Source of the DNA: Escherichia phage vB_EcoM_Lh1B | Reading direction: 5' to 3' (one strand) | Length of the DNA: 64,000 bases | Sequence record: OK428535.1 | Part shown: positions 2,350 to 22,784 of the stretch, in pieces | Numbering within the stretch: position 1 is the stretch's first letter | How the letters are laid out: every line of letters begins with the position of its first letter | Notes under the pieces: generated by a model | The model's input: only the letters and a program-made list of their open reading frames with translations | What the model was told of the DNA's origin: nothing | Database searches by the model: none | Translations under genes and position numbers: made by a program

Positions 2350-2865
2350 GTGAGCATGATAGCATCAGTTTTCAAACTGCTTCCATTCTTACAAATGCTG
2401 TGGGAAGCATTTAAACCGGGCGAGGGGGAGAAAGTAACACGAGCCGGGAAAATAGTGACACTAGTGATAGTGGCACTGATCGCGTTCTCTGCATTTGTCT
2501 CATACGCCTACATTGTTCAATACCACACACTGGTTAGCGTTCAATCGCGTACTCAGTATCTGGAGATATCCTATAAGGAGCTAAAAGAGAAGTCCGATCA
2601 TGGCGAAGTGGAGAACAATAAGTTGTACGATCGTCTCTTCACGTGCCTGGGTTCTCGACCGCCATATGATGGTACCAAATCTCCAACAGGAACAGGCACT
2701 GAGGCCGCGGTTCCGCCTGTANAAANCAANCCNGTAANNCCNCCGGCNCCGTTNAATCCNTCTANCCCNCCNNCCAAGAAATACCNGGCCNCTTCTCNCC
2801 CGGTAGGGTCGCAGGAGGCAAATGATTTCCGACAGGAGATTATCAGTACGCTTAATAATCCATGA
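2350..2865 (+). CDS. membrane protein, candidate i-spanin-like
   Basis: 171 aa; one hydrophobic segment (IVTLVIVALIAFSAFVSYAYIV) followed by a charged helical stretch and Pro/Gly-rich C-terminus; immediately precedes a lipoprotein gene. Confidence 0.35.
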   Translation: MSMIASVFKLLPFLQMLWEAFKPGEGEKVTRAGKIVTLVIVALIAFSAFVSYAYIVQYHTLVSVQSRTQYLEISYKELKEKSDHGEVENNKLYDRLFTCLGSRPPYDGTKSPTGTGTEAAVPPVXXXXVXXPXPXNXSXXXXKKYXAXSXPVGSQEANDFRQEIISTLNNP

Positions 2866-2874
2866 GGAGCATAC

Positions 2875-3354
2875 ATGAAGTTATTTTTGGTGGCGATACT
2901 GGTGCTATTGTTGACAGGATGCCCTGGAGCCATCCGTCACGTAGACCCAGATTACTCCTCAACCGGAGATTGGCCTTTTCGTCCTTTAGAACACCCACCA
3001 GTTTATGCTGGTGGGAACAGTCCTGAGGCGAAAAAGCTGGCAGGGAAAATGTTTGTTGCGGATGTGAACGCTTATGCTTATTACGTTTATCTGTACGCTA
3101 AGTCGTTGAACAATTACGCAGAAGCTAAGGGGTGGCGCACCCCGATGGCCGCACCGCTTTGTGAAGAGTTTATTCGCCCCACTCTTCATGATATACCCTC
3201 CGGGATATATCTCGACCCTGGTTCTCGTAGCCCTCAAGACATTAGTCGTGATTTGTCACGACAGATTAAGTCNCTCATTCGCAGCTATCGCGAAGACAGA
3301 GAGTCTTTTAATCATGCCTACGAACGGCACAAAAGTAGTTGCCTTGTGCAATGA
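2875..3354 (+). CDS. putative lipoprotein, candidate o-spanin-like
   Basis: N-terminal signal peptide MKLFLVAILVLLLTGC with lipobox L-T-G-C; 159 aa, longer than typical o-spanins. Confidence 0.45.
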   Translation: MKLFLVAILVLLLTGCPGAIRHVDPDYSSTGDWPFRPLEHPPVYAGGNSPEAKKLAGKMFVADVNAYAYYVYLYAKSLNNYAEAKGWRTPMAAPLCEEFIRPTLHDIPSGIYLDPGSRSPQDISRDLSRQIKXLIRSYREDRESFNHAYERHKSSCLVQ

Positions 3355-3358
3355 AAAC

Positions 3359-3397
3359 TCCCTCTTACCTTCGGGTAAGAGGGGATTTCCTTTTTTA
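3359..3397 (+). terminator. intrinsic terminator
   Basis: Stem CCTCTTACC / GGTAAGAGG with TTCG loop followed by T-tract, directly after stop of 2875..3354. Confidence 0.6.
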
Positions 3398-3413
3398 NNT
3401 TAATANTCAATAN

Positions 3414-3426
3414 TGTGATATATAAT
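3414..3426 (+). promoter_or_regulatory. candidate extended -10-like promoter element
   Basis: TGTGATATATAAT about 17 nt upstream of the 3443 start, downstream of a terminator; contains N calls nearby. Confidence 0.3.
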
Positions 3427-3442
3427 CTCNTGGNGAGTTGAA

Positions 3443-4162
3443 ATGACATATCCTAAAATTCTGCCTGTTTTAACGCCCACCGTTGTTGTTGGGACGGACT
3501 TAGAGACCCTGGCTTTACGTCCAGATGCCTACATCTTAACGTTGGCAAACGTGGCATTCGATGTTCCGACAATGAAAATGATCGGTTCATGTTACCACAA
3601 AATCGACCCCAATGATGCAAAAGCAAAAGAAATCTTCTACATCGATCCACAAACGGTCGGTTATTGGGAAGGTAAAGGCGACCCCGAATACGCACCGAGC
3701 GAGAAAGCACGTATTGAAGCGTTTTCTGGGACCACTCCACTGCCAGAAGCACTGTGGGCGGCCAAAAAATGGTTGGATGATCTGGGCAACGTGAAAATGG
3801 TTATCACCATGCGCGGTCCCGATTTCGATGCTCCAATTCTGATGAACGCATTCGCGCAGTGCGATATCCCGCCGGGCAAGTACCGCAAGTTTTCTATATT
3901 GGACTCTGACCGGACTGCAGAACGTATTGCATATGCGTTTGGCCTGGAACCGAACTGGCACGCAGAAGCGCACCATTGGACCCGTGGCAAAGAAGCGTAC
4001 GAGCATAACGCTAGCTTCGATGCTGCGAAGGAAGCGTATTCTACGGCACGCATCTATCATTTGGCCCTGGTCGCGCGTACGTACGGCTTCGAACGCATGT
4101 TAGAAGCCCACCGCGAAATGTGCACAGGTGAATACATTCCACCGCAGTTGCGAGGAGAATAA
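3443..4162 (+). CDS. DnaQ-like DEDDh 3'-5' exonuclease
   Basis: 239 aa; N-terminal VVVGTDLETLA (Exo I D-x-E) and C-terminal HNASFDA (Exo III H-x4-D) in the expected order. Confidence 0.6.
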   Translation: MTYPKILPVLTPTVVVGTDLETLALRPDAYILTLANVAFDVPTMKMIGSCYHKIDPNDAKAKEIFYIDPQTVGYWEGKGDPEYAPSEKARIEAFSGTTPLPEALWAAKKWLDDLGNVKMVITMRGPDFDAPILMNAFAQCDIPPGKYRKFSILDSDRTAERIAYAFGLEPNWHAEAHHWTRGKEAYEHNASFDAAKEAYSTARIYHLALVARTYGFERMLEAHREMCTGEYIPPQLRGE

Positions 4163-5676
4163 TGAAAGACGTCGACGTAGCGGTTATTTATACCGATGGT
4201 AGTCATACTGAGTCCCCGAAAGGTTCGGGGGCTGGTATTCATGGTTATTTATTCAACAACGGAGATTTGGAAGACAGTCAGGCTTATAGCCATCCGGGTG
4301 TTTCANAANGGATTACCACTGTTGGATANAAAAAAGNGCCGCAGGNTGNGAAGTGTCCGGNGTTGCCGGACACCGTTNAATTTNTNGACGCCGTTNTTCC
4401 CGTTCCNAAANAGTTNTNCNCAGATGTGGGNGNGTTAATCNCCTTCATCACGTTNTTTGAGAACGCGCCCTTCCGCGCGAAGAACTATATCATCTACGTG
4501 GATGCCAGTTACGTTGTAAACACTTTTAACGAGTGGATAGACGGCTGGCATAAACGTGGTTGGGTTCGTGCTGACGGTACTCCGCTGGCGAACAAAGAAC
4601 TTATTGTTCGTATCTGGGAAATCAAACAGCAGATGAAAAAAGAAGGACGGGGTGTTAAGGTTATCAAAATCAAAGGACACTCCGGCCACTACGGTAACGA
4701 CCGGGCGGACGAATTGGCTAGAAAAGGTTCAGCCATCACAGCGACCAACGACGGCGTTCCATATCAGCCGTACTGGTCGAAGGATGAGTTGCCTGCATCC
4801 GCGGAACCCGAGCCCATCGCCGCTGGGATGAACCTTGCGGCATATCCGCCTATTTGTACGGTTAAATATTGCTATCCGTTGGTGAACGAGGACCATCCTA
4901 CTGTAAAAGTGAAAGATGAAACTTTCTATTACATGTTTGGTGGCAACCATGCAAAGAACAAGGACGACTTGGTGTTTATTGGGAAAATGATTCCTGATGC
5001 ACACTTTTCCGTAATGTTCACTAAACAACCGTGGGATAACATCTACACGATTGTAAATACCCACGCCGCCCTGGCATGGAAAGATACACCGAAGATGCGG
5101 CAGTATGATCCAATCGGTGTTGTTAACAATGAGTTCGTTAAACGTAAGAAGTTCGTTGATGTGGCAGGTGATGGATTACCGGCAGACAAGATGCATTTCA
5201 GTGGAGAAGATTCCAATGTCTGGTTCTTTGAAGACCTGGCCATCTCCAGAATGCTTCGCCCGCCCTTATTGTCGTACCGTGCGCTGGATATTCGTGATGA
5301 ACTCGCTACAACGTTGCGAGATGTTCTGCATCAGGAAAAGGGTTACGTCTTAAACGACATTACCGACTTGCTATTCGACGACAAAGGTAAACCTGTCAAG
5401 GAATACTACCGTAGCGTCGATAAGTCAATAACGTTAAAGATTGACTTTCCGATGGGTAAACGACCTGTCTCGGTTATTTTGACTCGCGGTATCGATATTC
5501 CATCACGTACGGAAATCAACCGTATTAAAGAACCCGAAGGCCGTTATTACATCGCGGTGTGTCGTCCTGAAAAATACTACATCCGTTACTTCTTAATCTA
5601 TATCGGTAAAGAGTATCATGGGTTGTGGTGTGCGTATTACGCAAACCGTCGCATACTGCGAGAAGAAGAGGTGTAA
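4162..5676 (+). CDS. RNase HI-domain protein with large C-terminal extension
   Basis: 504 aa; N-terminal VAVIYTDGSH...GSGAGIHGYLF and KIKGHSGHYGNDRADELARKG match RNase HI catalytic blocks; about 350 aa of unknown function follow; N calls inside the RNase H domain. Confidence 0.65.
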   Translation: MKDVDVAVIYTDGSHTESPKGSGAGIHGYLFNNGDLEDSQAYSHPGVSXXITTVGXKKXPQXXKCPXLPDTVXFXDAVXPVXKXXXXDVXXLIXFITXFENAPFRAKNYIIYVDASYVVNTFNEWIDGWHKRGWVRADGTPLANKELIVRIWEIKQQMKKEGRGVKVIKIKGHSGHYGNDRADELARKGSAITATNDGVPYQPYWSKDELPASAEPEPIAAGMNLAAYPPICTVKYCYPLVNEDHPTVKVKDETFYYMFGGNHAKNKDDLVFIGKMIPDAHFSVMFTKQPWDNIYTIVNTHAALAWKDTPKMRQYDPIGVVNNEFVKRKKFVDVAGDGLPADKMHFSGEDSNVWFFEDLAISRMLRPPLLSYRALDIRDELATTLRDVLHQEKGYVLNDITDLLFDDKGKPVKEYYRSVDKSITLKIDFPMGKRPVSVILTRGIDIPSRTEINRIKEPEGRYYIAVCRPEKYYIRYFLIYIGKEYHGLWCAYYANRRILREEEV

Positions 5677-21999: not shown

Positions 22000-22536
22000 A
22001 TGGCTGACAACGTCGTTCCATTCAAACCTAAAGTGGCGGTTGCTACGGACGAACCGCCGTTTATTCCTGTCAATGGACAGAAGATCATCGAGTTTCCAGA
22101 CGAACATCGTGGACAATTGCACGTTCCACAACCGGACGGGACGATGAAAGCTATCGGTTTCCCGATAGCTGAACAAGAATGGTGGACGCTTCTGGCCATC
22201 CAGATGATGTCGCGTGGTCTGGGTGTGTCTACGGAACCTGTCGTTCGCATTAATACCGACCCGTATATCCACGAACAAGGCAGTTGGATGGAACGACGTC
22301 GGACAATGGAGATGCAGATTAGCAAAGAAACGCTTTTGCAAATCGCAGAATCCACACCTTTCATCCTGACCTCATCTTTTAACGGGGATATGGATGAAGA
22401 CCTCTACATGCACCTTTCAGGCTTAGCAGCTGAGCACCGTATTGCAGAAGAAGAGCCTATCTATACCGAAGCGATGATTATCCATCCGACCGGCTTAGAA
22501 GGTAATACCTTTAAACTGATTTGGGTGGAGCTATGA
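22000..22536 (+). CDS. hypothetical protein
   Basis: 178-aa ORF. Confidence 0.5.
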   Translation: MADNVVPFKPKVAVATDEPPFIPVNGQKIIEFPDEHRGQLHVPQPDGTMKAIGFPIAEQEWWTLLAIQMMSRGLGVSTEPVVRINTDPYIHEQGSWMERRRTMEMQISKETLLQIAESTPFILTSSFNGDMDEDLYMHLSGLAAEHRIAEEEPIYTEAMIIHPTGLEGNTFKLIWVEL

Positions 22537-22784
22537 CTGACCGACTTACTAAAACAATTCGACTACCACAAGAGCGTAATGTTCGCAAAGGCGTTGTTTT
22601 AACGGGGGAACAACGGGTTGAATTAAAGGCCCTGTTCCCGGAACAAACCGATTATCATGTCGACCAAACGGNATTAAAAGAGTTTGCAAAGAACGCTCCT
22701 GAAATGCTGCTGCGTAAGAAAGAAGAAGAACTGAATATGCTCCGTAACAGCGTAGACGTTCTCTTTAAAACAATGGAGAAATAA
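22521..22784 (+). CDS. hypothetical protein
   Basis: 87-aa ORF. Confidence 0.45.
   Translation: MGGAMTDRLTKTIRLPQERNVRKGVVLTGEQRVELKALFPEQTDYHVDQTXLKEFAKNAPEMLLRKKEEELNMLRNSVDVLFKTMEK

Follow-up and report, generated by a model that had tools for sequence, protein, structure and literature searches.

A membrane protein and lipoprotein gene pair of SPN3US-like jumbo phages: a candidate two-component spanin

Spanins are the devices by which phages breach the outer membrane at lysis. Two-component spanins are recognised bioinformatically by the transmembrane domain (TMD) of the inner-membrane subunit (i-spanin), its helical periplasmic part, the outer-membrane lipobox of the partner subunit (o-spanin) and the adjacency of the two genes. 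All of these features are present in a pair of genes, here called A and B, at positions 2,350 to 3,354 of a 64,000-nucleotide stretch of Escherichia phage vB_EcoM_Lh1B (sequence record OK428535.1); this whole stretch is referred to as the window. Gene A encodes a single-pass membrane protein and gene B a lipoprotein, and they correspond to gp204 and gp205 of phage SPN3US. That the two proteins form the spanin of SPN3US-like phages is the most likely explanation, with a chance put here at about even.

The nearest described relatives are CR5_183 and CR5_184 of Cronobacter phage CR5, which a survey from the Young laboratory lists as a 'separated' i-spanin/o-spanin pair, each forming a singleton family and the assignment being a prediction only (Kongari et al. 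2018; PMC6139136). The coordinates in its supplement (168815-169330 and 169340-169786) are those of the genes extracted here from CR5. They are true orthologues of A and B, with the same synteny and with identities of ~34-40% for A and ~30% for B, and they share the order of TMD, helix, Pro-rich linker and second helix, the lipobox and both conserved Cys residues. In the survey, one coiled-coil segment is predicted for the CR5 orthologue of A, disulfides are described as being in use among spanin subunits, and the periplasmic part of the CR5 o-spanin (134 aa, ~48% helical) is the longest among the values examined (PMC6139136), which bears out a remark in an earlier note on this DNA that the lipoprotein is long for an o-spanin; despite this atypical length, the protein was accepted as an o-spanin by the curators. 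SPN3US is not covered by that survey, and gp204 and gp205 are called 'hypothetical protein' in every record that annotates them (72 records in all), whereas the CR5 pair is listed as a spanin. The spanin assignment is already public as a curated prediction for the CR5 orthologues, so it is not very surprising.

The Rz/Rz1 spanin of phage lambda resembles the pair in overall design, with a type-II inner-membrane protein that contains two helical segments and a linker, an outer-membrane lipoprotein partner, periplasmic Cys residues in both subunits, and coupled genes that are linked to lysis genes. However, there is no sequence similarity, and the Rz1 gene is embedded, whereas A and B are separate genes. 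Mature B has 143 residues and two long helices, compared to the 40 residues of the unstructured, Pro-rich Rz1, and A carries a conserved cytoplasmic amphipathic helix of ~30 residues that is missing from Rz. The unimolecular spanin gp11 of phage T1 has an N-terminal outer-membrane lipoprotein signal, as B does, but is a single chain that combines a C-terminal TMD with a periplasmic domain rich in beta structure, while here two proteins are found that are both helical, and B is without a TMD.

Within the same virus family, the lysis cassette of phiKZ has been defined by experiment and consists of the i-spanin gp141, the o-spanin gp141.1 (120 codons), the holin gp142, the regulator gp143 and the endolysin gp144; gp141/gp141.1 complemented lambda RzamRz1am (Manohar et al. 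2026, PMC12894885). This spanin shares with the A/B pair its overall topology, a fairly long o-spanin and two conserved periplasmic Cys residues. It differs in its overlapped genes, in its location beside the holin and endolysin genes and in the lack of detectable homology, and SPN3US has no counterpart of gp141/gp141.1 at the syntenic site after gp84/gp85. A second phiKZ pair, gp156.1/gp156, resembles A/B in another way: it has the same position, the same order of a membrane protein followed by a lipoprotein, and a lipoprotein whose C-terminal half is homologous to that of B. In phiKZ-type phages, however, the A-type protein is only ~95 aa long, of which ~40 aa are periplasmic, and has neither a linker nor a second helix, and the B-type protein is without helix 1. 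This link between gp204/gp205 and gp156.1/gp156, and with it the presence of two membrane protein-lipoprotein pairs in phiKZ-like phages, emerged from the present comparison; neither was found in the literature, nor was any paper discussing SPN3US gp204/gp205 or any functional data for phiKZ gp156. It turns a routine annotation into the question of whether an old spanin stands beside a newer one or whether these phages carry a second envelope-spanning system.

Architecture of the membrane protein and the lipoprotein

Over its first 12 kb, the window is 96-98% identical to Escherichia phage EC001, the Salmonella phages JN03 and SPN3US and related members of Seoulvirus, with 90-100% of the query covered. 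The window is thus part of an SPN3US-like jumbo phage (Seoulvirus, Chimalliviridae), and its position 1 corresponds to SPN3US position 177,623. Gene A is SPN3US_0204 (gp204), EC001_2010 and RefSeq gp062, and gene B is SPN3US_0205 (gp205), EC001_2020 and RefSeq gp061. As both open reading frames (ORFs) contain undetermined bases (N) in the window, work at the protein level relied on the sequences of EC001 and SPN3US, which are free of such bases there and 96-98% identical to the window. All features described below lie on the plus strand.

Gene A (2356..2865) is identified by the ORF list, its sequence and the family alignments as the gp204 orthologue, a bitopic inner-membrane protein of 169 aa that matches PHROG 8719 (E 1e-74). 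Translation could begin at GTG 2350 (171 aa) or at ATG 2356 (169 aa); the latter, which is preceded by a Shine-Dalgarno-like GAGGTG and agrees with EC001 and with the N-termini of all relatives, is the more likely start. The protein begins with an amphipathic helix (aa 2-18, KLLPFLQMLWEAF, 2359..2409) that is seen in the AlphaFold2 secondary structure and in the alignment and is predicted to be cytoplasmic. The start of gp204 in the SPN3US GenBank and RefSeq records (JN641803 180017) is placed at Met16 and cuts off this helix. The single strong hydrophobic segment of the protein, with a Kyte-Doolittle maximum of 2.48 at residues 33-51, gives a transmembrane helix at ~aa 33-54 (2452..2517). Three to four Lys or Arg residues are found in the 15 residues before it and none or one after it, a bias that predicts an N-in/C-out topology.

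An AlphaFold2 model of A, built on a 22-sequence alignment, contains a continuous helix over residues 29-100, with a predicted local distance difference test (pLDDT) score above 90 for approximately residues 40-90. The TMD therein runs on without interruption into a periplasmic alpha-helix that reaches ~aa 100 (2518..2655). This helix ends at a conserved single Cys (LFxCL), which is followed by an RPPY(D/E)G motif; in the alignment the Cys is nearly invariant and the Tyr of the motif invariant. Next comes a hypervariable, Pro-rich linker (~aa 101-140, 2656..2775), which is predicted to be disordered (pLDDT <50 over residues 104-138) and is gappy in the alignment. After a short helix at residues 141-146, the protein closes with a C-terminal periplasmic helix (aa 153-167, 2812..2856) that contains FRQEIISTLN and is a candidate contact site for the lipoprotein. 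The SPN3US-, CR5- and Vibrio-type proteins and the metagenomic protein, all of which have a long-form lipoprotein partner, retain the ending R-x-x-(I/L)-x-x-x-(I/L)-N, which is absent from phiKZ-type and partner-less homologues. In Pfam, A and B alone and all members of both family alignments at E<=10 gave only sub-threshold matches to transmembrane and coiled-coil families (FtsH_ext, DivIC, TatC), and for A the weak DivIC and FtsH_ext matches reflect the combination of a TMD with a coiled coil.

Gene B (2875..3354), recognised from its ORF and sequence as the gp205 orthologue, encodes an outer-membrane lipoprotein precursor of 159 aa (143 aa when mature) that matches PHROG 8165 (E 2e-60); relatives in UniRef carry the name 'Lipoprotein'. 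Its product begins MKLFLVAILVLLLTGC, and the signal peptide (2875..2922) follows the PROSITE-type lipobox rule, with an L-T-G-C lipobox (LLTGC) whose Cys16 is encoded at 2920-2922. The Pro at position +2, which is not a retention residue, points to sorting to the outer membrane. In the family the lipobox Cys, near position 15, is present in 53 of the 59 representatives, and Asp occupies position +2 in none of them. No hydrophobic segment is found past the signal peptide, and the protein ends in SSCLVQ.

Mature B starts with a flexible, Pro/Gly-rich tether (aa 17-49, 2923..3021; pLDDT <50 over residues 18-42), which is between ~20 and 110 aa long in different family members. For B, the AlphaFold2 model is of low to moderate confidence (mean pLDDT 62) and consistent with the alignment. 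Together they suggest a helical hairpin (3022..3342), made up of helix 1 (aa 50-84), a loop opened by Cys96 (3160-3162) and helix 2 (aa 120-156), which ends at Cys156 (3340-3342). Helix 1 reads VNAYAYYVYLYAKSLNNYA...GW and follows the family pattern VNAYAYYVYxYAxxLNxYA...GW. The two Cys residues lie 58-60 residues apart in almost all of the 59 representatives, the last one being 2-3 residues from the C-terminus, and this constant spacing suggests an intramolecular staple. A profile search of 1.84 billion representative proteins returned only 50 relatives of B, indicating a small family, and those relatives with a visible source or genomic context are all from phages. Searches for a known function gave no spanin, holin or lipoprotein-function family in Pfam for members of the A and B families at E<=10, only the unknown-function families 8719 and 8165 in PHROGs for A and B, respectively, and only family members and weak gp156-type matches when the gp205 model was compared to the fold library BFVD.

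At 2864..2874, the stop codon of gene A overlaps the Shine-Dalgarno sequence GAGGAG of gene B, which belongs to the 9-nt spacer, and this suggests translational coupling of the two genes. ORFs, hydrophobicity, structure models and lipobox agree with the description in the earlier note of a single-pass membrane protein with a helical periplasmic part, followed 9 nt downstream by a protein with a clear lipoprotein signal. The 'unimolecular architecture' suggested there is incompatible with the two separate ORFs and with the lack of a C-terminal TMD in gp205, and the arrangement is that of a separated two-component system.

These properties of A, namely a single N-terminal TMD with N-in/C-out topology and a predicted helix-linker-helix periplasmic domain, fit an i-spanin, while B fits an o-spanin in its signal and in its gene position directly downstream of A. 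The conserved periplasmic Cys residues, one in A and two in B, would be in keeping with a spanin as well. Moreover, the C-terminal helix of A and helix 1 of B co-vary, both being present in the SPN3US, CR5, Vibrio and metagenomic forms and both absent in the phiKZ-type forms. The long forms thereby gain just what a meeting in the periplasm needs: the linker and second helix of A and helix 1 of B.

From these properties we infer the following sequence of events. A would sit in the inner membrane as a type-II protein and extend a long helix, a flexible Pro-rich linker and a short C-terminal helix into the periplasm, and B would hang a disulfide-stapled helical hairpin on a flexible tether from the outer membrane. 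The C-terminal helix of A would contact helix 1 of B, and the resulting complex would bridge the inner and the outer membrane as a separated two-component spanin. Removal of the peptidoglycan mesh by the Sec-exported lytic transglycosylase gp198 would then allow the complex to collapse and to fuse or disrupt the outer membrane, and the progeny would be freed.

Co-occurrence of the genes and their lysis-gene neighbourhood

The pairing of the two genes is not accidental. Genes A and B are adjacent, with a spacing of -4 to +9 nt, in all nine relatives extracted, which represent five genera. In a tblastn search each of the two was found in 72 phage records with identical organism counts (34 Erwinia, 33 Salmonella, 2 Cronobacter and one each from Proteus, Enterobacteria and Escherichia). 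Downstream of gene B lies an intrinsic-terminator-like hairpin (3359..3397), detected by a terminator scan and by RNA folding, with an 11-bp stem and a UUCG loop at 3359-3384 and a T-rich tail; its fold has an energy of -21.4 kcal/mol (z = -3.1), and none of 200 shuffled sequences folds as well. A and B thus look like a two-gene operon of their own.

The pair is also the only one of its kind in SPN3US. A lipobox scan of the whole 240-kb genome, covering six frames and all starts under strict and relaxed rules, yielded only three credible lipoproteins, gp159, gp180 and gp205, and of these only gp205 has a gene for a type-II membrane protein directly upstream. This uniqueness, in phages that have no gp141-type pair, supports the assignment of A/B as the spanin. 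The clear lipoprotein gp159 (JN641803 137623-138114, lipobox LLAGC) was rejected as an o-spanin candidate, having no membrane-protein neighbour. Also rejected was gp180, which has a lipobox-like VLAAC and is without a coiled-coil transmembrane partner; it belongs to a cluster of four small signal-peptide proteins with several Cys residues each (gp180-gp183, JN641803 165783-167492).

All relatives share a conserved gene order: a macro-domain gene, a lytic transglycosylase gene, zero to four small genes, the inverted virion genes gp202/gp203, A, B, an exonuclease gene and an RNase H gene. In SPN3US the transglycosylase is gp198 ('putative endolysin'; 3059-3781 of the extracted SPN3US locus L003), which lies on the same strand as the pair and ends ~4.2 kb upstream of A. 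That is ~1.8 kb left of the window edge, which is why the earlier note, stating that no endolysin or holin was adjacent, missed it; the statement holds inside the window only. In SPN3US, EC001 and every relative inspected, the transglycosylase gene shares the strand of the pair and lies 2.1-4.7 kb upstream of it. The distance is 3.0 kb in CR5-type phages and 2.1 kb both in a metagenomic contig and in Vibrio phage pVp-JHP1101. These last two are the most distant of the long-form relatives, and nothing but the two inverted virion genes separates the enzyme gene from the pair there. In long-form phages those two genes always stand between them, and the transglycosylase and the pair are never contiguous. 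Such a linkage, conserved over a large evolutionary distance, supports a spanin function. The lysis genes of T4 are likewise scattered. Between the transglycosylase and the virion genes, SPN3US encodes gp200 (L003 4429-4689), a protein of 86 aa with two TMDs and without a PHROG match, encoded two genes downstream of the transglycosylase, which is a plausible holin or pinholin candidate.

In all SPN3US-, CR5- and Vibrio-type phages examined, the transglycosylase begins with a classical Sec signal peptide that contains an A-x-A-type site, whereas the phiKZ endolysin gp144 has no signal peptide. All phages with the long forms of A and B thus export an enzyme that needs restraint afterwards, which is an argument for a role of the pair in lysis regulation: A would act as a class-III-like holin or antiholin, and B as its periplasmic partner or as an inhibitor that silences the exported transglycosylase until lysis. 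In gross topology A resembles a class III holin, as its short N-terminus is cytoplasmic, its C-terminal domain periplasmic and a single TMD lies between them, and the conserved linkage to the transglycosylase also speaks for such a role. However, A matches neither Phage_holin_T nor any other holin family; even at E<=10, none of the 22 members matched a Pfam holin family, and class III holin (T4 gpt type) identity is not supported. A likeness of its N-terminus to T4 holin T (FK-x5-KV followed by a TMD), noticed by eye, found no Pfam support and was not used. Furthermore, gp200 is a more conventional holin candidate near the endolysin, the phiKZ holin is gp142 by experiment, and phiKZ-type phages have B without a secreted endolysin. 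We know of no antiholin that is an outer-membrane lipoprotein. Regulation of lysis by the pair is accordingly regarded as improbable.

The position of the pair is fixed as well. It is found between a divergent gp157-like virion gene and an RNase H-like gene in SPN3US, EC001, Caitlin, CR5, Phobos, Asesino, Huxley, Wellington, EarlPhillipIV, Vibrio JHP1101, a metagenomic locus (L023), phiKZ, PhiPA3, 201phi2-1, Phabio and PS119XW. This bears on the alternative raised in the earlier note, according to which B is a surface lipoprotein of the Llp/Cor type that serves superinfection exclusion or receptor masking, with A as an unrelated or accessory neighbour. A role in exclusion is common among phage lipoproteins other than spanins, B exceeds the typical o-spanin in length, and SPN3US encodes other lipoproteins and secreted proteins, hence envelope-directed accessory functions. 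On the other hand, the pair belongs to the conserved genome backbone, where it keeps one syntenic position between core genes across phages of Salmonella, Erwinia, Cronobacter, Vibrio and Pseudomonas, and does not behave as a variable moron. A and B strictly co-occur at near-zero spacing, B being always paired with A at this site, and Pfam and PHROGs revealed no similarity to known exclusion proteins. An Llp/Cor-type role is therefore regarded as highly improbable.

The phiKZ pair and the case for a different envelope function

The second phiKZ pair, gp156.1/gp156, is located at the syntenic site between gp157, a homologue of SPN3US gp203, and the RNase H-like gp155, a homologue of gp207. Its membrane protein gp156.1 (96 aa) combines an amphipathic N-terminus with a TMD and a helix of ~40 aa, and its lipoprotein gp156 has ~133 aa and the lipobox LISGC; the annotated start of gp156 (22185-22598 of the phiKZ locus L012) is a TTG four codons upstream of the signal-peptide Met and is probably mis-called. 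Pairs of this type are kept in PhiPA3, 201phi2-1, Phabio, PS119XW and others (PHROGs 14813 and 15897). The lipoproteins gp205 and gp156 are homologous, as three sequence comparisons show. Their family alignments match in hhalign with a probability of 90.8% and an E of 1.2e-6 over the C-terminal 65 columns, which include both Cys residues; phiKZ gp156 matches PHROG 8165, the family of gp205, at E 1.8e-6; and the gp205 profile reaches the gp156-like proteins P0103, P0105 and P0106 in a large protein library. Common to both are the motif C-x-x-(F/Y)-x-(L/M/I)-P, an amphipathic helix at the C-terminus and a Cys that precedes the end by 2-3 residues. For the membrane proteins, the hhalign match between gp204 and gp156.1 is not significant (E 0.054, probability 1%), with residues 20-46 in register, and a K-LL-PFL...G...K-x-T pattern followed by the TMD is common to both by eye. 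Vibrio JHP1101_139 is linked to PHROG 8719 (E 1e-5) and Xoo-sp14_153 of Xanthomonas phage Xoo-sp14 to PHROG 14813 (E 2e-8).

The A/B pair was rejected as a paralogue of the validated spanin. In hhalign comparisons of the phiKZ gp141 and gp141.1 families with those of A and B, probabilities were 1-43% and the matches were confined to the signal peptide and tether. A tblastn search with phiKZ gp141, gp141.1, gp142 and gp143 found nothing in SPN3US, and gp141-type i-spanins were detected by tblastn in Pseudomonas phages only.

Several observations weigh against a spanin role of A and B. The most direct one is that phiKZ carries the gp205-homologous pair beside its proven spanins gp141/gp141.1, so that gp156.1/gp156 is not the working spanin there. 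Nor does the transcription of this pair resemble that of a typical late lysis gene: 155, which is essential, is co-transcribed with 154, 156 and 156.1 and shows high, nucleus-dependent expression at 20 min (Gerovac et al., PMC12571901). A-type membrane proteins without a lipoprotein partner are found at the same site in Goslar, PCH45, the RAY-like Mortimer and Xoo-sp14. Those of Xoo-sp14 (Xoo-sp14_153, L022 3001-3552), Goslar (gp247, L026 3895-4446) and PCH45 (L025 3916-4440) have the same N-terminus, the TMD and a long periplasmic coiled coil, and their outer-membrane partner, if needed, is encoded elsewhere or absent. Within A itself, the strongest conservation lies in the cytoplasmic amphipathic N-terminus of ~30 residues, for which an i-spanin has no need; K, L, P, L, E, F and G occupy (nearly) invariant columns there, and the K-LL-PFL-like motif recurs in phiKZ gp156.1, in Goslar gp247 and in the PCH45 and Xoo-sp14 proteins. 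B, in turn, appears unusually long and helical for an o-spanin, with a periplasmic domain of 143 aa that comprises a tether and two helices of ~35 residues (in a low-confidence model), compared to the typically short, Pro-rich and little-structured o-spanin. Two metagenomic relatives of B, P0063 and P0100, have a plain signal peptide without the lipobox Cys, which suggests soluble periplasmic variants, unless their starts are mis-called. Finally, the spanin role is a prediction, and no similarity of A or B to any validated spanin was detected with Pfam, PHROGs or hhalign against gp141/gp141.1. Since spanin families are very diverse, this lack of homology does not exclude membership. Thus, the spanin proposal of the earlier note agrees with the curated CR5 prediction (PMC6139136), but is weakened by the missing homology to validated spanins and by the phiKZ pair beside proven ones.

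The same observations are accommodated if the pair is a conserved envelope module of the Chimalliviridae with a function other than disruption of the outer membrane, A being near-core and B an accessory partner. Remodelling of the envelope during the long infection, superinfection signalling or membrane anchoring are examples of such a function, and SPN3US-like phages would then be without a classical spanin or would have one that has gone unrecognised. Besides the coexistence of the phiKZ pair with validated spanins, the lone A homologues at the same site and the conserved cytoplasmic N-terminus, this explanation draws on the co-transcription of the phiKZ pair with the essential RNase H-like 155 and its expression in mid infection. 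In addition, ~13% of the phages of Gram-negative hosts have no recognisable spanin. Transposon data for phiKZ show no insertions after trimming in 154, 155, 156, 156.1 and 157, while 158 has 19 sites (bioRxiv 10.1101/2025.11.23.690004, Table S2). The absence of insertions in 156 and 156.1 may be polar, because the essential 155 is co-transcribed with them, and it is not read here as essentiality. In the same data set 141 and 141.1 have one site of 3 reads each, and gp141/gp141.1 are not dispensable (bioRxiv 10.1101/2025.11.23.690004). Against an envelope module of this kind stand the lack of anything positive for a specific alternative function, the homology between gp204 and gp156.1 that is not statistically established, the conserved linkage to the transglycosylase, and the second helix, linker and extra helix that the long forms of A and B gain in SPN3US-like phages and that suit a span across the periplasm. 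Overall, we consider this explanation rather unlikely, yet a serious rival to the spanin.

A related proposal is that gp204/gp205 belong to a second envelope-spanning system of nucleus-forming jumbo phages, with phiKZ gp156.1/gp156 as its short form and the membrane subunit surviving by itself in Goslar, PCH45, RAY-like phages and Xoo-sp14, and are not the spanin. The cytoplasmic helix of A would couple an intracellular event to the periplasm and outer membrane, for instance by restraining or releasing the transglycosylase or by sensing superinfection, and the outer membrane would be disrupted by another route. This proposal is put forward tentatively, as a possibility that we hold to be somewhat doubtful. 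The probability not taken up by a spanin, an envelope module, lysis regulation or exclusion is assigned to explanations outside these four.

The distinction matters in the first place for SPN3US, the genetic model for enterobacterial giant phages, in which the genes near gp198 are annotated as hypothetical except for the 'putative endolysin' itself. If A and B form the spanin, gp204/gp205 would complete a lysis set with gp198 and the candidate holin gp200, and would add an unusually large, helical o-spanin that bears on how spanins fuse membranes. If they do not, SPN3US-like phages would offer a tractable 'spanin-less' case in Salmonella, and the module common with phiKZ gp156.1/gp156 would represent an envelope system that is conserved among nucleus-forming phages but unexplained. 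In practical terms the benefit is modest and consists of a better annotation of at least 72 phage genomes, some of them phage-therapy candidates.

Adjacent genes and further observations

Past the terminator, positions 3443-5676 of the window encode a 3'-5' exonuclease (Rv2179c-like in the metagenomic relative), followed by an RNase H-like homologue of phiKZ gp155 (Nlp2). In a 2025 antisense study, phiKZ gp155 was found to be essential for maturation of the phage nucleus. The membrane protein-lipoprotein pair and the RNase H-like gene are co-transcribed in phiKZ, whereas in the window they are separated by the terminator.

The window contains 247 N, which are clustered (for example at 2722-2798 and 3398-3434). 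Gene A has 17 of them, most of which (2722-2798) sit in the Pro-rich linker, gene B has one, and the intergenic stretch past the terminator has six. At the 18 N sites within 2350-3354, EC001 and SPN3US differ at only three, so the N are not simply polymorphism between those two phages.

In SPN3US, gp86 and gp87 (JN641803 84978-86286) directly follow gp84/gp85, which are homologues of phiKZ gp139/gp140, and thus occupy the site at which phiKZ carries its lysis cassette. gp86 has a cytoplasmic domain of ~100 aa and then two TMDs, and gp87 is soluble, a layout that recalls phiKZ gp142/gp143. BLASTP and PHROGs revealed no similarity of gp86/gp87 to gp142/gp143, and a phiKZ-like holin and regulator at this site is a positional idea only.

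The PCH45 protein listed as 'gp54 Rz/spanin' is probably not the homologue of gene A, as its neighbours are tail-fibre genes and the A homologue adjoins RNase H. The start of Mortimer gp150 (L028 4015-4500) is probably mis-annotated, and its ORF extends upstream to take in the ...PFIKK... motif.

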